Notes: generated by a model from the letters alone, not told the origin. 16,470 bases of DNA from an uncultured Eubacteriales bacterium (GCA_964640345.1 CAZXFU010000029.1:1-16470), one strand, 5' to 3'; counted from the stretch's first letter, positions 2,774 through 16,470 are shown. Numbers and translations: made by a program.

Positions 2774-3298
2774 CTATTTCAAATATTTGTCGTAAACAAG
2801 TTTACTTCTCTTAATTATCTCTTCAACATTCTCAGCATCTGCATTCTCATTTGCTTTTTCTTCGGCGTAATCAAACTGAATATCAATATTTTTTTCGCCC
2901 TTAAAATAATACCTTATCTCTCCGCCTACAGTATTAGAAACTGTCTTATACAAAGTTAACTTGTCATTTTTATCAAAAATATAAACCTGGTTTTCTAAAA
3001 AATCACTTACAAATTTTATCTCAACCATTTGCTCTCTAACTTCAACTGTAGCTGGCAATCCTTCTTCTCCCGTTTCAAAATATGCCATAAATTCTTCAAC
3101 AAGTTCGCCACCTACATCTATACCAATATTAGCGTCAAATCTCTCGCTTACCTCTTGTGCTTCAACACTTTTCGCAATCTCATTTATTTTCGAAATATTA
3201 CTACTCCTTACCCTATCAGCATCAGTCAAATAAGCAATGCCTATACCAATAATTAACAACACAATGCCAACCAATATCCAGCCAATAATTTTACGCAT
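2774..3298 (-). CDS. Hypothetical membrane-anchored protein (single N-terminal TM, acidic extracytoplasmic domain)
   Basis: 174-aa ORF with GGGAGGG 5 nt upstream of the ATG. N-terminal MRKIIGWILVGIVLLIIGIGIAYL is a signal anchor. I recognise no family. Confidence 0.7.
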   Translation of the reverse strand: MRKIIGWILVGIVLLIIGIGIAYLTDADRVRSSNISKINEIAKSVEAQEVSERFDANIGIDVGGELVEEFMAYFETGEEGLPATVEVREQMVEIKFVSDFLENQVYIFDKNDKLTLYKTVSNTVGGEIRYYFKGEKNIDIQFDYAEEKANENADAENVEEIIKRSKLVYDKYLK

Positions 3299-3387: not shown

Positions 3388-3840
3388 TTACTGAGTAATA
3401 ACTTCAGCCCCTCTCTCGGTCTTAACTGCAACGGAATCTGCCTTTATAGTCAAATATTTCATCCCATCCTCATCATACTGTTCAAGAGTGCCTATAACTT
3501 CAATCCAATCATTTTCACTAGGATATTCGCCGTCAGTATAAAATTCAAAACCACACATACTCCCATCATTTCCACAGCACCCAGGGCCACTCCTGTAAAC
3601 ATATCGATAAATCATTTTAGTCGGCTCAACATATTCCTCAGTATACATTCCTTCAATCTTAATCCGCTTTCCTAAATACGCTGAAGGATTGGTATAAATT
3701 TCATTGATATATGTCAGATACATTTTCTCTGTAATATCTAAATCAACAGAATTACCCCCACTTGTAGTAGCTACTTTGTTTGAGCAACCTGCAAATATTA
3801 TCATGCTTAAAAAAATAATGCTAAAAAGTCTCAACCTCAT
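3388..3840 (-). CDS. Lipoprotein with CCxxD motif (resembles the C-terminal domain of DUF1980/TIGR03943-type proteins), linked to the metal ABC transporter
   Basis: Lipobox MRLRLFSIIFLSMIIFAG-C. The ATG overlaps the permease stop (ATGA, 3837-3840). Motif block GKRIKIEGMYTEEYVEPTKMIYRYVYRSGPGCCGNDGSMCGFEFYTDGEYPSENDWIEVIGTL. The domain resemblance is from memory. Confidence 0.7.
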   Translation of the reverse strand: MRLRLFSIIFLSMIIFAGCSNKVATTSGGNSVDLDITEKMYLTYINEIYTNPSAYLGKRIKIEGMYTEEYVEPTKMIYRYVYRSGPGCCGNDGSMCGFEFYTDGEYPSENDWIEVIGTLEQYDEDGMKYLTIKADSVAVKTERGAEVITQ

Positions 3841-4706
3841 TCTCTATCCCCCTTACCTCTTTTAAAAATACCTTTACCAATAAGCACTCCCAAAAATGCA
3901 AAAATTACAAAGGTAATAACTTGAACAGAAACAACTGTAGCTCCTGTCTGAAAAGACTGCTTACATGCCACAAAAAATCCAATAATAAATGTCAAAACAG
4001 AAATAATCGCTGAAGTAACAACCACGCTCCAAAAACTCTTGCAAATTCTCATCGCTGACAATGCCGGAAAAACTACAAGTGCTGAAATCATTATAGCCCC
4101 CATCATTCTCATTCCGACTACCACAGTAATTGCTGTCAAAACAGCCAATAAAACATTATATACACTTACCTTTATGCCTGTAGCTCGTGAAAAATTCTCA
4201 TCAAATGTAATTGCAAAAAGTTTATGGTATGACAATGCAAATAGAACAATTGTAGCAATCGACAAAATTATACTCAAAATTAAATCTTTATCTGTAAGAG
4301 TGATAATAGACGCCGACCCAAACAAACTATTACAAATATCTGTATTTCTAGTGTCTGAAAAATTATATACTAGACTACCAAGAGCAATAGAGCCTGTAGA
4401 TACTAAAGCTAAAGCAGAATCTCCCTTTAGTTTACTATTTTCAGTCAAACGCAATAAAAAGAACGCAGTAATAATTACAACCGGTACTCCTATTTCTAAA
4501 GAATACTCCTTAAGTCCCAAAACCGTTGCAATAGCTAGTGTGCAAAATCCCACATGTGAAAGTCCGTCGCCAATCATAGAAAACCTTTTTAGTACCAAAC
4601 TGACCCCCAAAAGTGATGCACAAAGCGAGACAAGAATTCCTACAACAAGTGCCTTCACAACAATTTTAAATAAAAGCGGATTTGAAAAAATTTCACTAAT
4701 CGTCAT
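3837..4706 (-). CDS. znuB: Metal (Zn/Mn-type, ABC-3 family) ABC transporter permease
   Basis: Polytopic hydrophobic protein typical of the ABC-3/ZnuB family (LVLKRFSMIGDGLSHVGF..., GMRMMGAIMISALVVFPA). The track start 4739 overlaps the upstream ATPase gene by 32 nt. ATG 4706 (MTISEIF...) lies 1 nt after the ATPase stop with AAGGGGTG upstream, so I prefer it. Confidence 0.85.
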   Translation of the reverse strand: MTISEIFSNPLLFKIVVKALVVGILVSLCASLLGVSLVLKRFSMIGDGLSHVGFCTLAIATVLGLKEYSLEIGVPVVIITAFFLLRLTENSKLKGDSALALVSTGSIALGSLVYNFSDTRNTDICNSLFGSASIITLTDKDLILSIILSIATIVLFALSYHKLFAITFDENFSRATGIKVSVYNVLLAVLTAITVVVGMRMMGAIMISALVVFPALSAMRICKSFWSVVVTSAIISVLTFIIGFFVACKQSFQTGATVVSVQVITFVIFAFLGVLIGKGIFKRGKGDRE

Positions 4707-4707
4707 A

Positions 4708-5412
4708 CTATTCACCCCTTCCCAAAAAAGCCTTTGCAAATTTTGTTTTCATATAATCATTCCTAGTTCCATAAAACAACGGCTTATGGTATAAATGCAG
4801 AATATGACTTGCATCTTTTGTAATCATAGATACATCATGCGAAATCATAATTATCGTTATTCCGTACTTTTTATTTAATTTACTTATTAACTCATAAAGT
4901 TCTGCAGTGACAAGAGGGTCAAGACCTGCTACAGGTTCATCCAAAAGTAGTACTTTTTTTGTAGCACACAAAGCTCTTGCAAGCAACACACGTTGCTGTT
5001 GCCCGCCGGATAAATCGTGGTAGCATTTATTTTGCACATCGGTAAGTCCTAAAAGTCTCATATTGCGTTTAGCAATAACTTTATCTTCTCGCGAATAAAA
5101 TGGCTTAAATTTTGAACTATTTAATGTGCCTGATAACACAACTTCTTTAATAGAAGCAGGAAAATCCTTCTGTACAAGCGTTTGCTGTGGAATATATCCT
5201 ATCTCAGTCTGCTTTAATCCATCATTAAATTCAATACTACCCTCTTCTGGTTTTAGCAATCCTAAAATTGCTTTCATAAGCGTAGACTTCCCTGAGCCAT
5301 TTTCACCGATAATACACAGATAATCTCCTTCATTTACCTCAAAAGAAATGTCCTTTGCAACTAACCTACCATCATATGAAAGCCTTAAATTTCTACATGT
5401 TATTAGTGACAT
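4708..5412 (-). CDS. znuC: Metal ABC transporter ATP-binding protein
   Basis: Walker A GENGSGKST, ABC signature LSGGQQQRVLLARAL, Walker B LLLDEP, H-loop ISHD. Sits between the binding protein and the permease, as in B. subtilis znuA-znuC-znuB. Confidence 0.9.
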   Translation of the reverse strand: MSLITCRNLRLSYDGRLVAKDISFEVNEGDYLCIIGENGSGKSTLMKAILGLLKPEEGSIEFNDGLKQTEIGYIPQQTLVQKDFPASIKEVVLSGTLNSSKFKPFYSREDKVIAKRNMRLLGLTDVQNKCYHDLSGGQQQRVLLARALCATKKVLLLDEPVAGLDPLVTAELYELISKLNKKYGITIIMISHDVSMITKDASHILHLYHKPLFYGTRNDYMKTKFAKAFLGRGE

Positions 5413-5413
5413 A

Positions 5414-6376
5414 TTACTTAAGTACCTCCCTTAAAACATCTACATTTCTTTCCATTAGTTCTAAGTACGTAACACCATTGTTAAAATCTTCTTTAGACAC
5501 ATTATGACAAGAATGAAGTTCGGCTTTAGTGGAGCCTGTCATATTACATATAGCATCTGCCACGTTTCCGTTAGAAAATTCAGTGTATAAAACCTTTGAG
5601 ATTTTTTCGTCTTTTACCTTCTGTGCTAAGAAATTAATTGTAGCAAGGCTTGGCTCCGAATTAGAAGAACAGCCTTTAAATGCCGCATAATACTTTAAAC
5701 CGTATTGCTCAGTCAAATATCTAAAAGGAAATCTCTCGGCGAATACCAAAGTCTTAACCCTAGCGTTTTCTACAACTTCCAAAAAATCACTATCTAATTT
5801 TTCTAATTTTTTCACATATTCGCTCGCATTACTTTTGTAATATTCTGAATTCTCAACATCCAATTCACATAAAGTATCACATATCTTATTAACAATTTTT
5901 ATAGCATTTACCGGCGAAGTCCAAACATGCTCATCTACCTCATTTTCATCCTCTTCATGTTCGTTTTCGTCTTCTTCCATTCCTTCTACTTCTTCCTCTT
6001 TAAGGGTGCTAACCGCATCAATAAGCGAAATTGTTTTTAATGAAGAAGAATTAACAGTCGATAAAACATCATTAACCCATTCATCACTTTCCCCGCCAAC
6101 ATATATAAATAAGTCGCTTTTTTCAATATCACTTATATCCTGTAAAGTTGGTTCAAATCCATGTGATTCAACACCGGGAGACAAAAGCATCCTTAACTCA
6201 ACTTTATCTCCGGCTACAGCCCTGACAAAATCATATTGCGGAAAAATGGTTGCAATTACCTTTAACTTGTCCGACTCTAAATTACCGGATATTTCTTTTG
6301 TTCCACATCCGGTACTACAAAGAATTAAAAAGCACGCAAAAAAGAATACCAAAAAGGTATTAAAATTTTTTCTCAT
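5414..6376 (-). CDS. znuA: Metal ABC transporter substrate-binding lipoprotein (cluster A-I, ZnuA/AdcA-like) with acidic/His loop
   Basis: Lipobox LILCSTG-C. Candidate metal-ligand contexts ESHGFEP and DEHVWTSP. Acidic loop EEEVEGMEEDENEHEEDENEVDEH. The track start 6403 lacks an SD. ATG 6376 (MRKNF...) is 9 nt after AGGAG. Zn versus Mn specificity is not provable from sequence alone. Confidence 0.85.
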   Translation of the reverse strand: MRKNFNTFLVFFFACFLILCSTGCGTKEISGNLESDKLKVIATIFPQYDFVRAVAGDKVELRMLLSPGVESHGFEPTLQDISDIEKSDLFIYVGGESDEWVNDVLSTVNSSSLKTISLIDAVSTLKEEEVEGMEEDENEHEEDENEVDEHVWTSPVNAIKIVNKICDTLCELDVENSEYYKSNASEYVKKLEKLDSDFLEVVENARVKTLVFAERFPFRYLTEQYGLKYYAAFKGCSSNSEPSLATINFLAQKVKDEKISKVLYTEFSNGNVADAICNMTGSTKAELHSCHNVSKEDFNNGVTYLELMERNVDVLREVLK

Positions 6377-6406
6377 ATTAAGCATCTCCTTTGAAATTGA
6401 CAAATA

Positions 6407-6435
6407 ATCATAGAAGAAGCCTGTTTAATCATTAA
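6407..6435 (-). promoter_or_regulatory. Candidate internal promoter with 11-bp palindrome (Zur-box-core-like) upstream of znuA
   Basis: Minus strand: TTAATG (6430-6435), 17 nt, TATGAT (6407-6412). The palindrome TTAATGATTAA (6425-6435) overlaps the -35 and contains TAATnATTA, the core of the Firmicute Zur box as I recall it. It is short and AT-only, so chance is plausible. Confidence 0.25.
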
Positions 6436-6709
6436 TTCTAACTTTCAACTCAACCGGTAACAATTTAAAACTTCTATATCTAGTATTCTCACAATAATTT
6501 CTAATAACTTCGATTATTAACTTAAACATTAAAGCAATCAGCACCACACAGCTAAAATTCTGTACTAGATTGTATAATGTACATATAATACATCCATTAT
6601 GAACGCAGCAATGATTAAAAAATTCAAAAGAAACAGAACTTAAGGAAAATGACAATGCAAAAATAATAATTATCATCAAAACAACCAACATTCTTTTTAA
6701 CATTTTCAT
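6425..6709 (-). CDS. Small Cys-rich membrane protein, hypothetical
   Basis: 94 aa from ATG 6709 (MKMLKRMLVVLMIIIIFALSF...), preceded by AGGAGTGTGAGGAAA. Two hydrophobic segments flank FNHCCVHNGCIICTLYN, with further Cys in NFSCVV and NYCEN. Sits directly upstream of znuA. Coding status is not certain. Confidence 0.5.
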   Translation of the reverse strand: MKMLKRMLVVLMIIIIFALSFSLSSVSFEFFNHCCVHNGCIICTLYNLVQNFSCVVLIALMFKLIIEVIRNYCENTRYRSFKLLPVELKVRIND

Positions 6710-6730
6710 TTTCCTCACACTCCTTTTTAA

Positions 6731-6760
6731 AAATGATATCATTTAAAGAATAAAATTCAA
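6731..6760 (-). promoter_or_regulatory. Candidate promoter with perfect 14-bp palindrome (Fur-family-like operator) heading the metal-uptake genes
   Basis: AAATGATATCATTT (6731-6744) is a perfect palindrome. On the minus strand, TTGAAT (6755-6760), 16 nt, TATCAT (6733-6738), so the palindrome covers the -10. The half-site AATGAT/ATCATT is the core of classical Fur-type boxes. It lies in the gap between the STAS stop (6789) and ATG 6709. Confidence 0.35.
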
Positions 6761-6788: not shown

Positions 6789-7094
6789 TTATGCAATAGT
6801 CAAAACTCCCATGAATCCTGTAATCTCAAACACTTCTTTTAATGTTTTGCTAGCATTCGTGATAACTAGCTGCCCTTGCAAAGCATTAATCTTTTTCTGT
6901 GTACTAAGTAATACTCTAAGACCTGCTGAACTAAGGTATGTAACACCTGCCATATCTAACTCTAAGTTTTTAACTTCATCACTAACTAAAAGCTCTGTAA
7001 TAGCATTTTCTAGCTCCGGAGCAGTATTTGTATCAAGTTTGCCCCCTAACTTTAAAACAATTCCATCTTCATTATTCTCCCTAACAATCTCCAT
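6789..7094 (-). CDS. STAS-domain anti-sigma-factor antagonist (SpoIIAA/RsbV family)
   Basis: LKLGGKLDTNTAPELENAI...LELDMAGVTYLSSAGLRVLLSTQKKINALQGQLVITNASKTLKEVFEITGFMGVL is typical of anti-anti-sigma proteins. A Ser is conserved at the phosphorylatable position (LSSAGL versus DSSGLG). The track start is a TTG at 7115. ATG 7094 (MEIVREN...) follows GAGGAGAGGA. Confidence 0.85.
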   Translation of the reverse strand: MEIVRENNEDGIVLKLGGKLDTNTAPELENAITELLVSDEVKNLELDMAGVTYLSSAGLRVLLSTQKKINALQGQLVITNASKTLKEVFEITGFMGVLTIA

Positions 7095-7111
7095 ATTACT
7101 CAATCCTCTCC

Positions 7112-7738
7112 TCAAAGTAAAATAAACGCCAACAAATTAACTGACATATGTCCGACTAACGGTGCAAAAATGCTATTAAATCGTTCAAATAAGAAAGCAT
7201 AAAATACTGCCGATAAAAAAGCAATCATCCCCCAAATAATATTGCCATGTATAATTCCAAACAAGGTTGCTTGTAATAACCCAGCAATGTATACATTAAT
7301 ATTCTTTTTTAGCTCGCCAAACAACAACCCCCTAAAAAGTAGCTCTTCGGACATCGGAGCAAAAATCACTATAGCCAAAAATCCTATAATGCTCTTTCCG
7401 TTAGAAAAATCGCTTTCAAGAGAATTTATCATATCATTTCTCATGCCTTCTGCAAACAAAAGTTGCACACTTTGGATCACGAGATTAATAAAAAGAGTCA
7501 AACATATAATAAATAAAACACTCTTAATTGAAATTCTCCTAATTCCTAACCTCTCACTAAACTCCCACCTGAAAATCCGTGCCATCACGAACACTAAACA
7601 AATAAATATAAGTGAACTAAAAATAGTACTAAGTAATATGTCACTTGGTATAGCACTCAAAAGAAATGACTGGCAAACGCCGAACAAAATAACATACCCA
7701 AAACACTTTGCAATCGACACTATAATATTCTTTATCAA
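7112..7738 (-). CDS. CPBP family intramembrane glutamic endopeptidase (CAAX protease/Abi family)
   Basis: Polytopic protein with the three CPBP motifs: EELLFRGLLF (EExxxR), FGIIHG (FxxxH) and GHMSVNL (HxxxN). TTG start at 7738 with GAGGAGA 7 nt upstream, 2 nt after the upstream stop. Confidence 0.85.
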   Translation of the reverse strand: MIKNIIVSIAKCFGYVILFGVCQSFLLSAIPSDILLSTIFSSLIFICLVFVMARIFRWEFSERLGIRRISIKSVLFIICLTLFINLVIQSVQLLFAEGMRNDMINSLESDFSNGKSIIGFLAIVIFAPMSEELLFRGLLFGELKKNINVYIAGLLQATLFGIIHGNIIWGMIAFLSAVFYAFLFERFNSIFAPLVGHMSVNLLAFILL

Positions 7739-7740
7739 AA

Positions 7741-8532
7741 CTAAATCTCCTCTTCTTCTAAAGTAGGATAAAAATACTCATTTATAACATTATTTACCTC
7801 AGTAAGTAATTCATCATTTCCCTTTGCGACCAGTCCAACATACTCAAGCAGTTTCCAGTCTGCCAAAGTATTAATTTCTAACGTGTCAGCATTCTCGGAA
7901 ACTACATTTTCTGCCTCGTTTTTATAACAAATAACTGCATCAATATTGTATAAAAGTAATTGGTCAATCGCATTATCTAAACTCTTGTACTGCTTAATAT
8001 CCGAAGCAACACCGGATACATCACTCTTAACCAAAGAAGTAAGCGGAGTATCTGAAATAAGTGCAACTTTTTTATCTGCAAAATCATGCAAACTAAAAAT
8101 TGTAACCCCCTTATTTGTAATAACATATGGCTCTTCTTTTGCAAAAACCAACGATTGATTAACCTTAAATTTGTCACTTTCATTTTTCTCAATTTTGCCA
8201 AACGCAATATCAACACTGCCATCCGTTATTAACTCAGCAACTTCGGCACGCGACGTTTTTATAAGATTAACTTTAACAGCATTCTTCTTAACAAAGTTCC
8301 CAATAATCTGCTCTTCAATATGATATATCTTGTCGTTTTCTTTCATTGCCTCATTATTTTCAGTTCCGGTGTCCTTATTCATAAACGGATATCTGTCTGT
8401 TGAAAAAGCTATATTTACGGTTCCATCTCCACGAATTTCCTCAATCGTCCTATATGCCACTTCTTCTTTACCACAGCCAGTAACCATAAACAGAATAAAT
8501 AAAAGCGGGATAAACTTAACAAATCTTTTCAT
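7741..8532 (-). CDS. Orphan family-3 solute-binding-protein-like lipoprotein (amino-acid SBP fold)
   Basis: Lipobox LFMVTG-C. SBP_bac_3-like layout: GTVNIAFSTDRYPFMNKD..., ...LITDGSVDIAFGKIEKNESD..., ...DFADKKVALISDTPL..., ...LLLYNIDAVICYKNEAE..., ...GLVAKGNDELLTEVNNVI. No cognate permease or ATPase is adjacent. Its SD (GGAGG) overlaps the TAG stop of the upstream VirB4 gene. Confidence 0.8.
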   Translation of the reverse strand: MKRFVKFIPLLFILFMVTGCGKEEVAYRTIEEIRGDGTVNIAFSTDRYPFMNKDTGTENNEAMKENDKIYHIEEQIIGNFVKKNAVKVNLIKTSRAEVAELITDGSVDIAFGKIEKNESDKFKVNQSLVFAKEEPYVITNKGVTIFSLHDFADKKVALISDTPLTSLVKSDVSGVASDIKQYKSLDNAIDQLLLYNIDAVICYKNEAENVVSENADTLEINTLADWKLLEYVGLVAKGNDELLTEVNNVINEYFYPTLEEEEI

Positions 8533-8543
8533 TTTTCATCCTC

Positions 8544-11210
8544 CTAACTAAACAATTCCTCAACACTAGGTGCAGCAACAATGTCAATACTTGTTCTACT
8601 CGTCGGACTGGTCACAACAAACGCCTGACCTCTTCCGTTATTTATAATCTTCTCTTGCTCACTTTCATTAATCTCGCCAGCTTTTTCATATAATTTACAC
8701 AAATCATGCATATCATTCGGTGCCAAAGCAAAAATAAATGAATACTGACAAGCATTTATAATAGCTGTAGACTTTCTTGCAATTTCTTCAGTCCCTACAA
8801 AATCCTTAATATTTTGTGTAATAATAATTTGCATACCATTATATTTTCTGATTCGTTTAGCCAATTGGAACATAAAGTCAAGTGCAATAGGATACTTTTC
8901 ATCAATAAAAACATGTGCCTCGTCAATAACAACTATTATTTTCCTATTAGCATTATATTTCATATTGTAATCTCTGTTTTTTATAATCTCGTTATCGAGC
9001 CATTTTAATACTAAAAGCATCTGAGCATTAGCAATTGTATTATTTTTGTTAGCAAGTAAACTTTGGAAATTAAACACAACAAAATTTTCTTCAGTAGAAA
9101 TCGTGGCTTCCCCATTCCACAAATTAGAGTTTCTGCCACCGGTAGAAAACTTTGAAATGTATGTAAGAAGCGTTCTTAAATTATTTTTACTATAATCTCC
9201 CTGCGTCTTTTGATATTCAAACAAAATAGCATCATATAAATCGTCAAATGTTGGAAAGTCCGCCGGTTTTAATTTACTTATATCTGTAGTTTCGTCAATT
9301 CCACGAGTAGCGTACACACGTAAAATCAAGTTGTTAAGATATTCCATTGCATCATTATCAAGTCCGTTTAAAATCTGTCTAAAAAATTCCTCTAGGAATT
9401 GTAAATGTGCCGAAAAACTTGTATTAACCGCATTTTCATCCTCTGTTTCATCAACACTTGCAACAATTTGAAACGGATTTAATCTGCCTTGTTTAGCACT
9501 TCCAACATCAATCAATTTGCCATGCAAATTTTTAGCAAGTGTAGCATACTCATTTTCAGGATCTAAAATAAATACCTTACTATCCTCAGCCGCTAAATTT
9601 GTAAGCATCATCTTTGTAGCATAAGATTTACCACTACCGGATTTTCCGATAATAACCATGTTGCTGTTAACTCTCTCTCTGTCTCTTCTAAAGAAATTCA
9701 AGAAAACAGGATAGCCATTACTGTTACCAAGGTTAATTCCGCCCGCGTCAGATAAAACACTATTAACAAATGGAAATACAGCAGCAACGGACGTCGAATG
9801 AATGCTTCTTGATTTCTTAATTAGCGGATCATATGCAGATAACTGACCACCAACATATGCATCAAACTGTTGCATAAACATATCATCAGTCTTAAAACCT
9901 TCTTCAGATAGAGCTCTCTTTACTCGTTTCTTAAAATTAACTCTTGATTTAGCCTTCTCTTCCGTAGTTCTTCTATCATAAACCGTAATATACACATTGA
10001 CTTCAAATAGTGTTTCATTATCACTCTGAAGCGTTGCCAAAACTTCAGACAAAGTATCTATATGATTAGTAAGCTCAATAATTTTACTTGTCTTTCCTGT
10101 CGCATTTCCCTGCCCACGAAGTTCATCAATCGCCCTATCAATACGCCTTACAGCCTGATATTTATCCACCGGCTTTAGTTTCATAACAACCTTAGTGTTA
10201 GGAATATCAAACAGTCTATAACCCCACGCATTATAAACCGACATAGGGAAATCTGTAATTCTTAAATTATGCGTAACTACGCCGTCATATTCAATAGTGC
10301 GTCCAAACATCTCAATTTTGTCCGGCAAAATCCAATCCATATAATTCTCTGGAGCAATATTTTCTATTTCTCTCTCATCAAAATCATACGTATAATTATA
10401 CTTTAAAAACACAGCAAGTTCTTTATCGTCTAACACCTTTACATTCATATTATTTGCAGTTAATGATTCATATGCAAACCTAAGCTGTTCCTCAATCAAA
10501 GTCTTATCGGTATCGTAAATAACAAGATAATGAAAAGCCTTAATAATATGAGCTTCTTTATTTATATAATTAATGTCTTCTCTTCTTTGAGTCAAAACAT
10601 TAAGCCTTACGTCAAGCTCTTCTTTTGTTAACATTCCATTAGAAAAAGCATTCCTTAATTCCGCAATCTTTTGATTTTCAGATACAATATAATCATCATA
10701 GTTGATTGGTCTGTCAATTTTTACGAGATTTGCAGCCTGTTCACCTGATAAATTTCTTAAAATTGAGCCAAACACTTTATCTATAAGATTATTTTGTCTA
10801 AACTCACTGTAGAATCTAAACTCAACAGGCGAAATCTCAATAACACCCGCAACATATTTCCCATTAAAATCAATTAACCCATTTTCAATTTTACTAAACG
10901 GAGTAATGTCATAAATATCATATTCCTTCTTTTTAGCCCTATTATTCGGATGTTTTACAAAATTTCTTTTATAAGATAAATGCCTTATAATGTTATTAAT
11001 AAGAACATATGTCTGATCATCATCAATTTTTACCAGCAATACAACAAATAACAGTGTAACCGCCAGCATAATCCAATACTTAAAAGCCAAATTTGACAAA
11101 AACAGGAACACAACAATAGTAATTCCTATTAGTCCTATAATCACATCTGCTAAACCAATCCCTTTAAAAAGTTCCATCTTAACTCTAGTGTTCTTTGGAA
11201 TAATACGCAT
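8544..11210 (-). CDS. VirB4-family type IV secretion/conjugal transfer ATPase with fused N-terminal VirB3/PrgI-like two-TM segment
   Basis: 888 aa. N-terminus IIPKNTRVKMELFKGIGLADVIIGLIGITIVVFLFL...WIMLAVTLLFVVLLV forms two TM helices in the style of small PrgI/TcpE/Orf17 proteins. Walker A IIGKSGSGKSY (nt 9624-9647) is followed by FILDPENEY. Walker B is IIVVIDEAHVF. Then KRIRKYNGMQIIITQNIKDF, typical of the VirB4 C-terminus. GGGGGG lies 6 nt upstream of the ATG. Confidence 0.85.
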   Translation of the reverse strand: MRIIPKNTRVKMELFKGIGLADVIIGLIGITIVVFLFLSNLAFKYWIMLAVTLLFVVLLVKIDDDQTYVLINNIIRHLSYKRNFVKHPNNRAKKKEYDIYDITPFSKIENGLIDFNGKYVAGVIEISPVEFRFYSEFRQNNLIDKVFGSILRNLSGEQAANLVKIDRPINYDDYIVSENQKIAELRNAFSNGMLTKEELDVRLNVLTQRREDINYINKEAHIIKAFHYLVIYDTDKTLIEEQLRFAYESLTANNMNVKVLDDKELAVFLKYNYTYDFDEREIENIAPENYMDWILPDKIEMFGRTIEYDGVVTHNLRITDFPMSVYNAWGYRLFDIPNTKVVMKLKPVDKYQAVRRIDRAIDELRGQGNATGKTSKIIELTNHIDTLSEVLATLQSDNETLFEVNVYITVYDRRTTEEKAKSRVNFKKRVKRALSEEGFKTDDMFMQQFDAYVGGQLSAYDPLIKKSRSIHSTSVAAVFPFVNSVLSDAGGINLGNSNGYPVFLNFFRRDRERVNSNMVIIGKSGSGKSYATKMMLTNLAAEDSKVFILDPENEYATLAKNLHGKLIDVGSAKQGRLNPFQIVASVDETEDENAVNTSFSAHLQFLEEFFRQILNGLDNDAMEYLNNLILRVYATRGIDETTDISKLKPADFPTFDDLYDAILFEYQKTQGDYSKNNLRTLLTYISKFSTGGRNSNLWNGEATISTEENFVVFNFQSLLANKNNTIANAQMLLVLKWLDNEIIKNRDYNMKYNANRKIIVVIDEAHVFIDEKYPIALDFMFQLAKRIRKYNGMQIIITQNIKDFVGTEEIARKSTAIINACQYSFIFALAPNDMHDLCKLYEKAGEINESEQEKIINNGRGQAFVVTSPTSRTSIDIVAAPSVEELFS

Positions 11211-11234: not shown

Positions 11235-13436
11235 CTACTTAGATAAAATATTCTTTTGTTCAGTCGAAAGACCAGTATTGCCACCTGTAGGCAATGATTT
11301 CGATGCACCGCCAGTCGCTTCGGACTTAACAATATTAGCCACTTCACTTGCCGCTCCGACTGCAACCTCCGCAATTCCCATCTCTGCAAGTGCAGCCTGC
11401 GGATCAATAAGTTTCATAAGCAAATTATGTGATTTAAACACCGCATAACACCCGGCAGTCAAAAGTAAAATCATAAAACCTGCATTTATAAAAGTATTTG
11501 TCGAAAAAACAACACTACCGTCAGTAACAATCGGTAAAACTATTCCTACAAATAACTTCATCATAATAACAAGTCCAAAACCAGAAACCAATTTTGCTAT
11601 AAACAATTTTCTCCAATCAGAAAATTTTTCGCACCCATCAAGTGAAATTGTCGCTGCAAAATACGGAGAAACAATAAATAACAAAATCAAATCAAAAATT
11701 CTTGTAACAAACATAATAATTGCAAGTGATAAAAGCAAAATTATGTATATACTTAAAAACAATCCGCCAATTATCTTAAAATACGAAAAATAAAAATACT
11801 CGGAAGAATCGGATGAACGTTCATATTTCGTACTGTTGTTATAAAATGAAATCCTTGCTCTATCTGTAAAAGACGGATTTTCAGAACAATCTTCATAATC
11901 TGTAGTCTCTTCCCCAAATGACAAAATCATAAACAGAGTATTACCCAAAGTCAAATTCGTTCCACTTGCATTTATCGTTATTATATCATCAATCTTAAGT
12001 AGAACAGCCGATGCAAGATTAATACTTATAATAACAAAAATCGGTACAATAGCATATGTCAAAAAGCTCTTTCCAATCTGACCCAAAATATTTCCTATTG
12101 ACTTTTCCCTATCATCAGTAAAAATTGCTCTAGTAACGCTGATTATAGCAAAAATCAAATTAAGTGCTATTCCTAAAATAAACACTCCCCAAAACACGTT
12201 TCTTATAGTAGTATCTTCAAACAACATATTTACAAAAATCGTACTAACTCCATCAACCATAATAGGTTTAGTGCCTGCAAAAATGCTAAAGATGTTCATA
12301 AGAGCATCTATAATTCTAAGCAAGAAAAGTAACGCTTCAAACATCCACATTCTTGCCCAAAATGTAACTATGTCGATATACAAGAAAAACAACTTTTCAA
12401 TAAGCCCACTTTGCTCAGTAAGCAATTTATTAAGTAACTCTAAAAACAAATCAAGAATTGGCTGAATAAGTGCATAAAGCATATTAACCAAAGTTCCAAA
12501 AGTTCCCTGCAAAGTATCAGATATCCTGTTTGACGCGTCCTCAATGCTAAGTCCAGACTCAGAATCAATATCAATATCGGCAGCAGTTTTTTCAAATTCT
12601 TCCTTAGTAAGTCGCTCAATAGGTGTTATATACTTTTCTTCAACAGTTAAAAATTCCAAATCATTCAAACTATAATGCCCATCATCATTAATAATTTCAA
12701 AATAATGCGTGCCGGCAGGTAATTCAATTTCTCCTGAAGCTTCAACATATTCCGAACTCGTTTCATTATGTTCAATGGTTGCAAGTTCTCCATTATCAAG
12801 CCTTAATACAAGTCTGTTTCCATCTGTACCTTCAAACTTACCCTTTGTAATAAATTTATATACCCCCGATTTATCCACAGCAATCTTGTAATCAACAAAA
12901 TCCCCGGGGTTCATATAAATGCTATTTTCGGAAAAAGTGCAACCGTATGATCCAAGCTTATCGCTAATAGGTATTTTCCCGGGCACAGAATTTCCACCGT
13001 TTAAGTTTCTTGTAACTAGAGAAAATTCCATATTTGAAAAATCCCAATTCTTTGCCAGTGAATGAACAGAAAGTTTATGCTTACCGGACGAAAACGATAT
13101 TGAAAAAATTATTTCTTCTTCATTCCCATCTTCATTCCAAGGTACTTTGCTCTCTTCCACAATTTTTTCTGAGTCACAATATATTTCAAATTTGCTATCA
13201 TCTTGGTATTCTTCATCTAAATTAGTAGCAAAAAACTTAAGTTCATACGTTCCGGGTACAACAACGTTTATTCCATAATCCAGCCAATCTGTTTCAGAGT
13301 TGTTTATATACCGTGATTTATGAATACTAAGGTCATAGTCGTCAGTAGCATGCGAAGAAAACGGTATACATATGAAAATTCCAAAAGTAAATGCTATAAA
13401 CATTAGCTTTTTTACTATGCTACTCAACACTATCAC
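11235..13436 (-). CDS. Secreted tandem CBM6/35-like beta-sandwich repeats fused to a polytopic membrane domain (putative VirB6/TrbL-analog T4SS channel subunit, paralog a)
   Basis: Signal peptide ...KKLMFIAFTFGIFICIPFSSHA-TDD. Two roughly 115-aa repeats share the pattern DW/F-x-DY-x-I-x-V...G-x-Y...(S/A)G-x-H...(M/L)EF. The C-terminal ~440 aa is multi-TM and paralogous to the next two ORFs (TRIFDLILLFIVSPYFAATISLDGCEKFSDWRKLFIAKLVSGFG). The start is ambiguous: GTG 13436/13430 or TTG 13427, after GGGGGTGA. That this is a real gene is near certain; the VirB6-like role is inferred from context and topology only. Confidence 0.6.
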   Translation of the reverse strand: MIVLSSIVKKLMFIAFTFGIFICIPFSSHATDDYDLSIHKSRYINNSETDWLDYGINVVVPGTYELKFFATNLDEEYQDDSKFEIYCDSEKIVEESKVPWNEDGNEEEIIFSISFSSGKHKLSVHSLAKNWDFSNMEFSLVTRNLNGGNSVPGKIPISDKLGSYGCTFSENSIYMNPGDFVDYKIAVDKSGVYKFITKGKFEGTDGNRLVLRLDNGELATIEHNETSSEYVEASGEIELPAGTHYFEIINDDGHYSLNDLEFLTVEEKYITPIERLTKEEFEKTAADIDIDSESGLSIEDASNRISDTLQGTFGTLVNMLYALIQPILDLFLELLNKLLTEQSGLIEKLFFLYIDIVTFWARMWMFEALLFLLRIIDALMNIFSIFAGTKPIMVDGVSTIFVNMLFEDTTIRNVFWGVFILGIALNLIFAIISVTRAIFTDDREKSIGNILGQIGKSFLTYAIVPIFVIISINLASAVLLKIDDIITINASGTNLTLGNTLFMILSFGEETTDYEDCSENPSFTDRARISFYNNSTKYERSSDSSEYFYFSYFKIIGGLFLSIYIILLLSLAIIMFVTRIFDLILLFIVSPYFAATISLDGCEKFSDWRKLFIAKLVSGFGLVIMMKLFVGIVLPIVTDGSVVFSTNTFINAGFMILLLTAGCYAVFKSHNLLMKLIDPQAALAEMGIAEVAVGAASEVANIVKSEATGGASKSLPTGGNTGLSTEQKNILSK

Positions 13437-13460
13437 CCCCTAATTTACAAATTAAAAAAA

Positions 13461-15254
13461 TCAAAATTTATTCCCGTTATCCTTTTTATCTGTTGGCTTT
13501 GCCTTTTTCCAAACAGAATCGTTGTTTTTTTCCTTTGGCTTAGGTCCACTGCTTGCTCTACCTGATGAAAAATCAGCAGTTCCACCATAAAAACTATTTT
13601 GTGAAACTTTATTATCAGATGTGATTCCCTGGGTTCTATTAGCCGTGCCATTTCTCCATGTTGACGTACTTTGAATACTGTTATTTATCTTACTTCCAAT
13701 AGATATACTGCTGTTTTTCGTAGCAAATTCACTGGCACTGCCATTCTGCCATGCCCTTCTGTGACTTCCGATTTCAATATTACTACTCTTTTCTCTATGG
13801 GAACCAATCATAATATTTTTATTTCTTGTAACATCATTAGATGTACTAACTCTATTATACATATTCAAATTAGGATTCCTATTAGTAATAGTTCCAGCGA
13901 CAGCAGGTTTTAAGCCGTTCTCTGCTGATTTAAGCCCACTTCCTCTTAACGCCTTCATTCCCATGTTCTTTGCAGACATCATAAAACCAAAACCAGCCTG
14001 AGCATTAGCAGATTCAGAATAAGAAGCCTGAACATTTAATATTTGCATAAGAAGCGAATTAGATTTATAAATAGCAAATGCTCCACCTACAATAAATAAT
14101 ACTTTAAGTCCCATATTAACGAAGTTAACAGATGAAAGTTCTAAATTGGAGCTCATAATTATAGGTACAAGAATAATATAAATTTTCATTCCTATTAACA
14201 TTCCAAAACCTGAAAACAGTTTCGCAATAAACATATTACGCCATTCATTAAATTTAGCGCCATCATCTAAAGGAATTGTTGCAACAAAAAACGGTGATGC
14301 AATATACAAAAGTAATACTTCAAAAATTCTTGTAATAAAAACAAATGTACAAATTATAAGCATAATTAACACAAAAAGTGCCATAAACAATCCTAAAACC
14401 GTTTTAACCTGTACAATATTAAAATCGCTCATTACATCCCCGGGATTCCAGTAGTTTTTCTTTCCTGAATAATAATCCGCTCTGACACCATCTGTAAAAC
14501 CTGCAATAGTTCCGCTACTATTATTATTTTTTAGTGCCTCTGCCATTTCTGCCGAGCTCATCTCTCCTGCCGTGTTTTCTTCTGCTTCTAAAGTCGAGGC
14601 TAAAAACAACACAGTACCAAGAGACGGTGTATCCATTCCTACACTCATAGAAAGAATTTCATTAGTCTTTTTTATAACAACATTAGTCATATTAAGTGCA
14701 AACAATGTAAAAAAAGGAACAATCAAAAACGTAAGTCCTGTCTTTAATATAGAACCAATAACCTTTCCGACGGGTCTTTTACCCTCTAAATCTGTTGTAG
14801 ACCTCATAACGGCAATTATTCCAAAAACAATTGAAACCGAAAAAGCAAGTAGCGTAATCGACCAAAATATTTTTGAAACACCGGAATTAGTAAAAAATAC
14901 ATTAAGCAAGAAATCACTGCTTCTTTGACCATTCTTAACTACAGTAATATCACTTACACCACCAAAAATATTAAAAGCATACTCTAAAATGTCTATAATC
15001 CTCAAAACCGCCACATACAAATAATACGTTCTTATATGTATCCACGCTAAAAATAAATCCCCGATAAGTCCAAGTATCGGCTCAACAAGTGATTTAAAGA
15101 AAGGACCCAATACAGGAATAAGTACATCATTTATAACAGTATTAAGTACCGTAGATATTACTTTACCAATCGCATCAGTAACAGGTGTTACAACAGCATC
15201 ATAAATTGCACCTGTTATATCTTTAATACTTATAAGCGGTAAAAACTTAAACAT
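13461..15254 (-). CDS. Polytopic membrane protein, putative VirB6/TrbL-analog (paralog b) with long Ser/Asn/Gly-rich repetitive C-terminal tail
   Basis: 597 aa, GAGGTGA 5 nt upstream of the ATG. The core aligns with paralogs a and c (TRIFEVLLLYIASPFFVATIPLDDGAKFNEWRNMFIAKLFSGFG; LRIIDILEYAFNIFGG). About 190 aa of hydrophilic tail follow, with repeats IMIGSHR / NIEIGSHR / SISIGSK and WQNGSA / WRNGTA. Confidence 0.6.
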   Translation of the reverse strand: MFKFLPLISIKDITGAIYDAVVTPVTDAIGKVISTVLNTVINDVLIPVLGPFFKSLVEPILGLIGDLFLAWIHIRTYYLYVAVLRIIDILEYAFNIFGGVSDITVVKNGQRSSDFLLNVFFTNSGVSKIFWSITLLAFSVSIVFGIIAVMRSTTDLEGKRPVGKVIGSILKTGLTFLIVPFFTLFALNMTNVVIKKTNEILSMSVGMDTPSLGTVLFLASTLEAEENTAGEMSSAEMAEALKNNNSSGTIAGFTDGVRADYYSGKKNYWNPGDVMSDFNIVQVKTVLGLFMALFVLIMLIICTFVFITRIFEVLLLYIASPFFVATIPLDDGAKFNEWRNMFIAKLFSGFGMLIGMKIYIILVPIIMSSNLELSSVNFVNMGLKVLFIVGGAFAIYKSNSLLMQILNVQASYSESANAQAGFGFMMSAKNMGMKALRGSGLKSAENGLKPAVAGTITNRNPNLNMYNRVSTSNDVTRNKNIMIGSHREKSSNIEIGSHRRAWQNGSASEFATKNSSISIGSKINNSIQSTSTWRNGTANRTQGITSDNKVSQNSFYGGTADFSSGRASSGPKPKEKNNDSVWKKAKPTDKKDNGNKF

Positions 15255-15276
15255 TCATCTCACCTCTTTATAAAAA

Positions 15277-16470
15277 TTATTTCTTCAAAATATTACCAAT
15301 AGATGACTTACTCCCCAAGCCACTTTTATTTCCAATACTACTTGTAAAATCATTTTTTAACGAATTAGACATATTATCTCCGCCACGAAACGCATTACTT
15401 CCTTTTTTATTGTTCTTACCACTATTACCGTCTTCATCTTCGCCTTTTAACACCATATTGCCAATAGATTTTCCCGCATCAAGTGCCATATTTTTAGCAT
15501 CCATAGCAAGTGTAGCCCCACCTGACGCCACTGCCTTAACAGCCACAGTACCATACTTTATTCCGGCTCTTACCGCACGAGTAGCAATTTCACTCGATAA
15601 TCCGGCTTCTTGATAAGCAGCGTTTATATTAACAATTTGAATAATAAGATTACCAGACTTATATGCAGCCCATAAACCACCTATAAGGAATAATGCTTTA
15701 ACTAGCGTATTCATAAGTGCACTGTCTGAAAAAACAACTCTGTCTGACATAACAATCGGAGAAATAATAAAGAACAATTTCATCACAATAACCATTCCAA
15801 AACCACCAAGCATTTTTGCAATAAACATTTTAACCCATTCTTTAAACTTAACCCCCCCATCAAGTACCACAGTTGCCACAAAAAATGGTGAAGTAATATA
15901 CAAAATCAGAACCTCAAATATCTTAACCACAAATACCAACGCACAAAGCACAATTATAAATATCATAACCGCACAAATAACAAACGCTAAAAAGTAATTT
16001 ATCTTTTCAATTGCAAAATCATTCATACCATCTAATGCATAATCTTTTTTACCGGATAAATATGATGCCCTTAGCTCATCGGTAAAAGTTGCATTACGAT
16101 TATATTCGTCATCCCTTGCCGCATCCATAGTAAGTGTAAGAAATGTAAGTGTTCCAAGACTTGCACTATTCTCCCCGCTTTGAGTGAGAGTAACAATTTC
16201 ACTTGTTTTCCTTAAAACAACAGATGAAAGATTAAGTAAAATTAGCGATAAGAAAGGTATCAAAAACAATGCAATCATAGCTTTAAAAGACATTCCTAAA
16301 ATCTGGCCATTAGTCTGTTTTACTTCTAAATTGCTCATATTTTTAATAATCGCAATAATTGTAAAGATAATTAAAATCGCTAATGCAATAAGCGTAACAG
16401 ACCAAAAAACTCTATTTATAACATTATTTCTGAAAAACACACTAAGTAAAAAATCTTTATTTCCATTATA
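15277..16470 (-). CDS. Polytopic membrane protein, putative VirB6/TrbL-analog (paralog c); N-terminus lies beyond the window
   Basis: The track begins it at GTG 16440, but the frame stays open to 16470. The extra residues YNGNKDFLLSVFFRNN align with paralog b NGQRSSDFLLNVFFTN, so the gene is truncated by the window. Core: VKIFEVLILYITSPFFVATVVLDGGVKFKEWVKMFIAKMLGGFG. The hydrophilic tail contains SIGN repeats. Confidence 0.6.
   Translation of the reverse strand, partial: YNGNKDFLLSVFFRNNVINRVFWSVTLIALAILIIFTIIAIIKNMSNLEVKQTNGQILGMSFKAMIALFLIPFLSLILLNLSSVVLRKTSEIVTLTQSGENSASLGTLTFLTLTMDAARDDEYNRNATFTDELRASYLSGKKDYALDGMNDFAIEKINYFLAFVICAVMIFIIVLCALVFVVKIFEVLILYITSPFFVATVVLDGGVKFKEWVKMFIAKMLGGFGMVIVMKLFFIISPIVMSDRVVFSDSALMNTLVKALFLIGGLWAAYKSGNLIIQIVNINAAYQEAGLSSEIATRAVRAGIKYGTVAVKAVASGGATLAMDAKNMALDAGKSIGNMVLKGEDEDGNSGKNNKKGSNAFRGGDNMSNSLKNDFTSSIGNKSGLGSKSSIGNILKK

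Follow-up and report, generated by a model that had tools for sequence, protein, structure and literature searches.

Type IV secretion systems (T4SSs) have VirB6 as their central platform, which is a homopentamer in the solved R388 machine. In R388, the VirB6 pentamer nucleates the VirB2 pilus. Among 1,103 Gram-positive conjugative plasmids, 1,113 VirB6-like proteins were reported, about one per plasmid (bioRxiv 10.64898/2025.12.18.695078). In the integrative and conjugative elements (ICEs) of mycoplasmas, the consecutive tags Mbov_0395, Mbov_0396 and Mbov_0397 belong to the pilin-like, transmembrane and VirB4 genes. Since Mbov_0397 is VirB4 (CDS17), the transmembrane protein of the Mbov_0396 family should be CDS16, a mapping that follows locus-tag order and is not taken from a paper. 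A 2025 review names CDS16 as the likely VirB6-like subunit of mycoplasma ICEs, and ICEA transfer is abolished or strongly affected when cds16 carries a transposon insertion (PMC6030558). Here we describe three tandem genes of this family, located directly upstream of a VirB4 gene, in DNA of an uncultured Eubacteriales bacterium (GCA_964640345.1, CAZXFU010000029.1:1-16470). The whole stretch of 16,470 nucleotides (nt) is called the window; it is essentially the complete contig (its proteins are recorded on a contig of 16,471 bp), and all its substantial open reading frames (ORFs) are on the minus strand.

We propose, with a probability of roughly 0.6, that the three genes encode co-transcribed, anciently diverged and non-redundant VirB6-like polytopic subunits of a monoderm T4SS. 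They are termed a, b and c, starting from the copy next to VirB4. The features needed for this argument are (aa, amino acids):

11235-13436, minus strand: paralog a, the VirB4-proximal copy, 733 aa, transmembrane core at residues ~301-690, short tail
12537-13346, minus strand: ectodomain of a (residues ~31-300), two CBM_6-like stretches, Pfam PF03422 E 5.6e-10
11557-11716, minus strand: signature block of a (…RIFDLILLFIVSPYFAATISLDGCEKFSDWRKLFIAKL…), repeat family D1, contains P591, D600 and W608
13461-15254, minus strand: paralog b, the middle copy, 597 aa, transmembrane core at residues ~76-420 plus a C-terminal tail of ~177 aa
14185-14344, minus strand: signature block of b, 70% nt identity to the block of a
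15277 to beyond 16470, minus strand: paralog c, the distal copy, C-terminal 397 aa only, 5′ end lost at the contig end
15779-15938, minus strand: signature block of c, 67% nt identity to the block of a
8544-11210, minus strand: VirB4-type ATPase, 888 aa, two N-terminal hydrophobic segments, NF045975 586.1 bits

An earlier note on this DNA, made from the sequence alone, had described three consecutive minus-strand genes with a shared multi-transmembrane core, and the ORFs as well as the peptides it quoted were recovered. The polytopic core common to a, b and c comprises about 350 aa and is 30-38% identical between the copies (BLASTP: a-b 30% over 434 aa, E 9e-64; a-c 33%, E 4e-40; b-c 38%, E 1e-63). 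All three proteins contain multiple hydrophobic segments according to hydropathy analysis, and AlphaFold2 (AF2) models show approximately six to seven long helices. The aligned codons are only 49-58% identical at the nucleotide level, and an independent repeat finder detected a single DNA family of 160 nt (D1) with three in-register copies at 11557, 14185 and 15779 that are 67-70% identical. The genes are therefore old duplications and not an assembly artefact, as the note had concluded. The repeat block encodes the motif SPFFVAT...KF..W...FIAK. P591, D600 and W608 (numbering of a) are the only residues invariant across 129 diverse family members; they are kept in a, b and c, which have also retained the near-invariant residues of the family.

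The layout is operon-like. The gaps between c and b (22 nt, Shine-Dalgarno sequence AGAGGTG), b and a (24-30 nt, GGGGG) and a and VirB4 (24 nt, GGGGGG) confirm that the genes are closely spaced, each with a Shine-Dalgarno sequence of its own, and run into VirB4. Between c, b, a and VirB4 no intergenic terminators were found, and promoter-like matches were at chance level only. The first in-frame start codon of a is the GTG at 13436; because the GGGGG sequence abuts it, the properly spaced GTG at 13430 or TTG at 13427 is the likelier start, and gene callers place the start of a about three codons later on orthologous contigs as well. Paralog c is incomplete because the contig ends within it; full-length orthologs on orthologous contigs have 537-553 aa (for example L002:8329-9978).

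Family membership was determined with curated NCBIfam models. NF045848 (MMCAP2_0566 family conjugal transfer protein, cut-off 90 bits) and NF045889 (Mbov_0396 family ICE transmembrane protein, cut-off 70 bits) are matched above their cut-offs by a (149.2 and 82.4 bits), b (211.3 and 101.8 bits), c (193.7 and 108.3 bits) and the full-length c ortholog mentioned above (206.6 and 108 bits). Clustering at 50% identity divides the family into about 3,000 clusters.

Orthologs of a, b and c are found in the same order in at least six contigs of the window clade, with 61-81% identity between orthologs compared to 30-38% between paralogs; VirB4 is 91-92% identical within the clade. Exact matches to the window's proteins came solely from the contig itself and a Logan contig of 4.1 kb, and the context upstream of c was read from longer contigs that carry b orthologs (L002, L004 and L006). 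There, the conserved gene order is VirD4, a pilin-like protein of 105 aa, a gene termed X, c, b, a, VirB4, a substrate-binding-protein (SBP)-like gene, CPBP and STAS. A fourth paralog upstream of c was considered and rejected: the gene at this position is X, a member of another conserved family, whose BLASTP E values against the three paralogs are all above 1. Since X is unrelated to the three paralogs, the window clade has exactly three copies, and the suggestion that more copies follow beyond the window did not hold.

All three copies are under purifying selection. Ratios of non-synonymous to synonymous substitution rates (dN/dS) against five orthologous loci were 0.08-0.15 for c, 0.08-0.19 for b, 0.11-0.22 for a and 0.02-0.04 for VirB4, values that are approximate because dS exceeds 1. 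The cores have dN/dS values of 0.04-0.15 (core of a: 0.06-0.15), compared to 0.19-0.33 for the ectodomain of a, which is the fastest-evolving part of this protein, and 0.19-0.46 for the tail of b.

The history of the array was analysed with neighbour-joining trees only (346 trimmed core columns, 100 bootstraps). Each copy of the window groups with one copy in the triplet of a distant locus, L079: a with position 1, b with position 2 and c with position 3 (bootstrap values of 77, 67 and 63 of 100). A recent lineage-specific burst as origin of the triplet was rejected, since the six copies of the window and L079 form one clade in only 1 of 100 bootstraps. The L079 triplet (L079:6980-9977, from a metagenome-assembled genome (MAG) of a rumen Clostridia member) is core-only, with 339, 340 and 319 aa for the positional orthologs of c, b and a, and is a useful minimal model of the array. 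Because a, b and c pair individually with these core-only copies, the triplet is old, older than the appended domains. In about 35 Lachnospiraceae-type loci, the proximal and distal copies form separate clades (29% identity between and 35-39% within the clades), and a termite-gut group appears to have triplicated separately.

To determine copy numbers, relatives of the window's VirB4 were collected (more than 1,600 at ~60% identity, from Enterocloster, Lachnospiraceae, Oscillospiraceae, Ruminiclostridium and Clostridium), and 80 species-representative VirB4-anchored loci (L009-L088) with 10-kb flanks were scanned with a hidden Markov model (HMM) of the family. These are the best 80 of 484 confirmed relatives, and the sample is hence biased towards the window's VirB4. 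Family members occur in 66 of the 80 loci and, where the sequence extends far enough, directly precede VirB4. Copies were counted where a locus extends 7.5 kb or more upstream of VirB4, which applies to 53 loci. Two tandem copies are most frequent (39 loci), followed by three (eight loci) and one (five loci); a single locus has none, so that 47 of 53 carry two or more. The three-copy loci are those of the window clade (L009-L011) as well as L017, L023, L036, L050 and L079. In the cultured Enterocloster citroniae, which has two copies, both score above the NCBIfam cut-off. A Spiroplasma plasmid (L089) carries exactly one copy, which is likewise linked to VirB4. Multi-copy arrays are thus the rule within this clostridial clade and unusual for monoderm T4SSs in general. 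The earlier note had regarded the array as atypical and undescribed; this stands in comparison with the model Gram-positive systems and the one Mollicutes plasmid, but not for the clade itself, where 47 of 53 loci are multi-copy, nor for the family, which is already curated.

At three Lachnospiraceae-type loci, a further copy is encoded several kb downstream from VirB4 (L060:15077-17572, L071:15478-17787 and L076:10582-12540), and these copies cluster together in the tree. At L034, no family member was detected in the full 10-kb upstream flank, which contains a MatE transporter gene instead. Four Firmicute-type loci (L043, L046, L054 and L062) are from MAGs labelled Paludibacteraceae, Prevotella or Parolsenella, which reflects either binning contamination or cross-phylum transfer.

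The copies differ most in what is attached to the core. The N-terminus of a resembles a signal peptide (…IPFSSHA/TDD) and precedes an acidic ectodomain, which matches the CBM_6 model PF03422 with 40 bits (cut-off 28.9) in two stretches; the CBM-like ectodomain proposed earlier for a was therefore found again, and its two halves weakly resemble each other (E 0.009). The proposed repetitive tail of 190 aa on b is present as a tail of ~177 aa; it is low-complexity, rich in S, N, G and K, and contains three IGS[HK] motifs, but no tandem repeats were found in it. Across copies and lineages the appendages comprise 260-1455 aa at the N-terminus or 100-880 aa at the C-terminus. They are C-terminal in the Lachnospiraceae-type proximal copies, N-terminal in a, and N-terminal with up to 1,455 aa in the termite-gut clade. 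Extended copies are typical of the position adjoining VirB4 and short core-only copies of the distal position.

This variability would fit interchangeable platform or channel subunits, with one paralog per machine, chosen according to partner, surface or condition, an idea that has been put forward for tandem VirB2 pilin arrays. The cores evolve more slowly than the ectodomain of a and the tail of b, copy number ranges from zero to three with an extra copy downstream of VirB4 in some loci, and variable VirB2 arrays are documented in Patescibacteria (PMC12102498). We nevertheless consider this unlikely: there are no recent duplicates, nothing in the low nucleotide identity points to gene conversion, the copies keep their order and orthology from species to species, and the single apparent operon, with internal promoters and terminators not above chance, argues against differential expression. 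The same appendages could also indicate that only one copy is the true VirB6-type platform and that the others were re-purposed as anchors or scaffolds, displaying an adhesin (a) or disordered tails (b and c). That the extended copies adjoin VirB4 while core-only copies are distal, and that single-copy systems exist, is consistent with such a division, which is nonetheless quite unlikely, as all three proteins keep the P/D/W signature and the near-invariant residues, their cores are equally constrained, and the copies of L079 (319-340 aa) are all retained without any appendage. The appended domains therefore cannot explain the retention of the copies. Altogether, the fixed order, old divergence, constraint on each copy and single apparent operon favour non-redundant subunits that would work in the same machine over interchangeable variants or decaying duplicates.

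The designation VirB6-analog, used in the earlier note, was examined by structure and profile comparisons. An AF2 model of b (predicted local distance difference test (pLDDT) 68.6) and one of the core of a, based on the alignment of 129 sequences (pLDDT 85.8, predicted TM-score 0.77), were compared with 350,542 chains of the PDB by Foldseek. For both models, the TrwI/VirB6 chains of R388 were the top four to five matches (probability 0.75-0.98, 285-322 aligned columns), but with E values of 0.03-0.12 and TM-scores of 0.22-0.40.

Several results weigh against our reading. These Foldseek E values are above 0.01 and the TM-scores below the usual same-fold threshold. Pfam PF04610 (TrbL/VirB6) does not match a, b or c at E ≤ 1, and hhalign comparisons of family profiles from 34 and 129 sequences with PrgH and TrwI gave probabilities of 0.2-0.5% (E 0.13-0.29). 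A sequence-profile search of the PDB with the family returned nothing relevant. Five relatives and the Spiroplasma plasmid have a single copy, so that several copies are not mechanistically required; in addition, tree support is moderate and the dN/dS values carry the uncertainty given above. What remains of the earlier designation is thus a polytopic T4SS membrane protein in the VirB6 position, whereas PF04610 is silent and the hhalign probabilities are below 1%. The label VirB6-like has reasonable support: gene context, topology and what is published on the family point to it, as does a fold match that is weak but reproducible. It does not imply sequence homology.

The missing Pfam family of the core and the lack of a significant sequence or profile match to VirB6 could also mean that a, b and c are unrelated permeases or exporters that are neighbours of VirB4 by chance; the SBP-like and CPBP genes nearby are elsewhere associated with transporters or bacteriocin immunity. 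This is highly improbable. The proteins match curated conjugation families above cut-off, no hits to permease or ABC-2 families were found for them, and the best structural matches are VirB6 proteins and not transporters. All 66 of the 80 loci that contain the family have it next to VirB4 in this VirB4-anchored survey, the same linkage is present on the Spiroplasma plasmid, and mutants of the mycoplasma family member are conjugation-deficient. A further lead, pLS20_p028, showed weak NCBIfam matches (E 4e-8 to 4e-11); no counterpart could be assigned to it in the published gene numbering of pLS20, where gene 49 is the putative VirB6, and the lead was dropped.

If a, b and c are subunits of one T4SS, the machine would further comprise VirB4 (possibly fused to VirB3), VirD4, a VirB2-like protein of the pilin family, the single-pass protein X and the SBP-like lipoprotein. 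By analogy with the pentameric VirB6 platform of R388, the three paralogs might co-assemble into a mixed platform or take distinct positions. Ehrlichia VirB6 paralogs are reported to be co-expressed and to interact, and this precedent makes a mixed platform plausible. The invariant P...D...W signature helix would represent the core function shared by all copies. Paralog a would expose its secreted CBM_6-like ectodomain outside the membrane, at the place where Gram-negative systems have VirB5 (the stalk position in R388), and might bind glycans of the cell wall or of a partner cell. The basic, disordered C-terminal tails of b and c probably face the cytoplasm and could dock ATPases or substrates; the charge differs between an acidic loop (206-284) and the basic C-terminus.

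The ATPase gene downstream of a had been described as VirB3/VirB4. Its VirB4 part is clear: the protein matches NF045975 (VirB4_plasma/Mbov_0397 family) over its full length, with a score just under the cut-off of 590 bits, and Pfam P-loop_TraG and DUF87. The VirB3 part is less certain, since the N-terminal 100 aa give a weak, nearly full-length PrgI/VirB3-like match with E 0.028, below cut-off, and a fusion of VirB3 to the VirB4 N-terminus is possible. The following genes downstream of VirB4 belong to the conserved order:

7741-8532, minus strand: SBP_bac_3-like protein, lipoprotein-like N-terminus, PF00497 26.1 bits (cut-off 26.4), conserved cluster 3
7112-7738, minus strand: CPBP/Rce1-like intramembrane protease, PF02517 E 4.5e-17, cluster 6, 38 loci
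6789-7115, minus strand: STAS anti-sigma-factor antagonist, PF01740 E 4.6e-20, cluster 7, 35 loci

The SBP_bac_3-like gene directly follows VirB4 in 52 of the 80 loci and has no ABC transporter partner. Its Enterocloster ortholog weakly matches the SBP-like N-terminal domain of MltF. By description only, the protein recalls CDS14, the essential surface lipoprotein of mycoplasma ICEs.

Beyond the window end, VirD4 of the orthologous loci matches NF045973 (CD1115 family) with 297 bits (cut-off 250), and the pilin-like protein belongs to PF18895 and NF045849 (Mbov_0395 family). X has about 340-360 aa, with an ectodomain and a single C-terminal transmembrane segment, and matches neither Pfam nor NCBIfam families; as a conserved part of the machine it is so far uncharacterised. 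The X family occurs in 64 of the 80 loci, often twice per locus (examples are L009:3107-4195, and L035:4287-5936 and 13818-14894). VirD4 is preceded in the orthologous contigs by genes for FecR, a CHASE2-guanylate cyclase, an unknown protein of 580-680 aa, an extracytoplasmic function (ECF) sigma factor and an ORF of 69 aa.

In every annotated relative, the T4SS genes are flanked by genes of partner switching and signalling, which encode STAS, a HATPase_c_2 anti-sigma kinase, a cNMP-binding SpoIIE PP2C phosphatase, a CHASE2 cyclase and an ECF sigma factor. FecR, a choline-binding-repeat protein and several unknown families also recur near the T4SS genes, and 141 other flanking ORFs are mostly housekeeping genes (RecA, SecY, PFK, PlsX, MetK).

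The earlier note had taken the locus for a conjugation module, which remains unproven. VirB4 and a type IV coupling protein are both present (VirB4 in the window, VirD4 in orthologous loci), but none of the relatives examined has a recognisable relaxase, integrase or hydrolase in the ~10 kb around these genes. Relaxases were searched for with general Pfam and NCBIfam profiles rather than mobility (MOB)-specific ones, ~10 kb to each side. Precomputed Pfam annotation showed none within this distance in L002, L004, L006, L090 and L091; none of the three functions was found among the recurrent gene clusters of the 80 loci, and no relaxase or recombinase was found among the 25 Pfam families listed of 79 detected in the 141 flanking ORFs. 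The only recombinase in the flanks of relatives was one IS66 element at the edge of L091. Within the module, there was no Pfam or NCBIfam match to a VirB1-type hydrolase or a VirB8-like subunit, and several conserved unknown proteins remain. A search of PLSDB found no plasmid with the clostridial form, and only Spiroplasma plasmids matched, with ~28% identity. The GC content is uniform across the window, and the flanks differ between species, as expected whether the locus is mobile or not. Mycoplasma ICEs conjugate although no relaxase has been assigned to them. The transported substrate may be DNA or protein.

A wider reading might be ventured, namely that the locus represents an undescribed class of chromosomally fixed, relaxase-less T4SS, widespread in gut and rumen Clostridia, with a hetero-oligomeric VirB6-like platform of two to three obligate paralogs, control by partner switching, ECF sigma factors and cyclic nucleotides, a non-conjugative role, and a lineage ancestral to the mycoplasma ICE apparatus. 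As a joint claim this is tentative and, as a whole, rather doubtful. The machine would be switched on via STAS, the HATPase_c_2 kinase, the cNMP-binding SpoIIE phosphatase and the CHASE2 cyclase; its role might lie outside the classical conjugation of plasmids or ICEs, for instance in protein delivery, in the release of DNA or in contact-dependent interaction, and the walled Firmicute lineage could be the source of the minimal mycoplasma ICE apparatus.

On the other side of the T4SS genes, the window contains a Zn-uptake ABC operon, sigK and an S1-domain gene beyond STAS. The STAS gene is 83-86% identical to its orthologs and is the last syntenic gene before the inserted Zn-uptake operon. The individual features are:

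6425-6742, minus strand: ORF of 105 aa without assignment, part of the Zn-uptake block (3388-6742) that separates STAS from the 174-aa gene
5414-6403, minus strand: ZnuA-like SBP
4708-5412, minus strand: ATPase of the Zn-uptake transporter
3837-4739, minus strand: permease of the Zn-uptake transporter
3388-3840, minus strand: DUF1980-like gene
2774-3298, minus strand: gene for a protein of 174 aa
1929-2639, minus strand: sigK, NF004471 320.9 bits, TIGR02846 311.9 bits

In L009, L002 and L004, the ortholog of the 174-aa gene (52-54% identity) directly follows STAS, so the Zn block is either an insertion in the lineage of the window or was lost in the others. The sigK gene is uninterrupted, with no skin-like intervening element. 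The presence of sigK and the use of genetic code 11 indicate a sporulating code-11 Firmicute as host, and the closest relatives are MAGs labelled "uncultured Eubacteriales".

A literature search for multi-copy VirB6 in Firmicutes, for the NCBIfam family names and for relaxase-less clostridial T4SSs, which covered journals outside subscription, found no description of such a locus. It thus appears that a widespread monoderm T4SS with conserved tandem VirB6-like paralogs, a signalling context and no recognisable relaxase is undescribed in the searchable literature; the protein family itself is already curated in NCBIfam, and the array is common within the clade. Two to three ancient and individually constrained VirB6-like paralogs are nearly always retained in a large clade of commensal Clostridia, which spans Lachnospiraceae, Oscillospiraceae and other families with a VirB4 identity of ~60%. 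This raises the questions whether heteromeric T4SS platforms exist in monoderms and what the extra domains of each copy contribute. The survey connects a richer clostridial system with the minimal apparatus by which mycoplasma ICEs conjugate, and exposes a T4SS locus with signalling neighbours and without a recognisable relaxase; non-conjugative roles of Gram-positive T4SSs were named a long-standing open question in a 2025 FEMS review. Cultured carriers exist (Enterocloster citroniae, Lachnospiraceae bacterium 45-P1 and Moryella indoligenes DSM 19659), so that the function can be tested.

The closest match among described systems is provided by the Mollicutes elements. CDS16/Mbov_0396/MMCAP2_0566 proteins belong to the same family by HMM cut-offs, are polytopic, and are encoded between an Mbov_0395-family pilin-like gene upstream and an Mbov_0397-family VirB4 gene downstream. 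The Spiroplasma plasmid examined has one copy compared to three in the window, the host of the window is a sporulating, walled Clostridia-type Firmicute, the CBM_6-like ectodomain and the disordered tails are additions, and a DDE transposase or other ICE functions were not seen near the window-type locus. With the VirB6/TrbL proteins (TrwI of R388, PrgH of pCF10, PF04610), the paralogs share the polytopic architecture and the location in a core T4SS operon near VirB2, VirB3 and VirB4. These proteins are the best structural match of two paralog models, and a [SG]P[LF]F...F..W-like stretch aligns in alignments that are not significant. In contrast, significant sequence or profile similarity is lacking, TM-scores reach only 0.22-0.40, and the model systems encode one VirB6. 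The extended VirB6 proteins of MPF-FA (mating-pair formation) systems and gene 49 of pLS20 resemble many of the VirB4-proximal copies of the clade in that the core is fused to large extra regions (700-900 aa), but they are single genes with C-terminal extensions, whereas a is extended at its N-terminus by a predicted extracellular region and belongs to a set of duplicated cores.

Arrays of one T4SS component are known from two other groups. The T4SS of Patescibacteria, related to MPF-FATA systems, is also of the monoderm type and chromosomal, with a PF18895-type pilin, no relaxase nearby and one structural family in arrays. There, the arrays consist of VirB2 pilins (2-11 copies), the phylum is different, and a partner-switching neighbourhood is not present; Patescibacteria are a precedent for a relaxase-less, co-opted monoderm T4SS. 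The rvh systems of Rickettsiales (Ehrlichia, Anaplasma, Rickettsia) likewise encode several diverged VirB6-type genes in tandem, some of them extended. They are diderm, alphaproteobacterial MPF-T effector systems with classical VirB6 sequences, whereas the system of the window is monoderm, Mollicutes-ICE-like and of another family. Because both the type of system and the sequence family differ, the clostridial array arose independently and is a parallel to the VirB6 expansions of the Rickettsiales.

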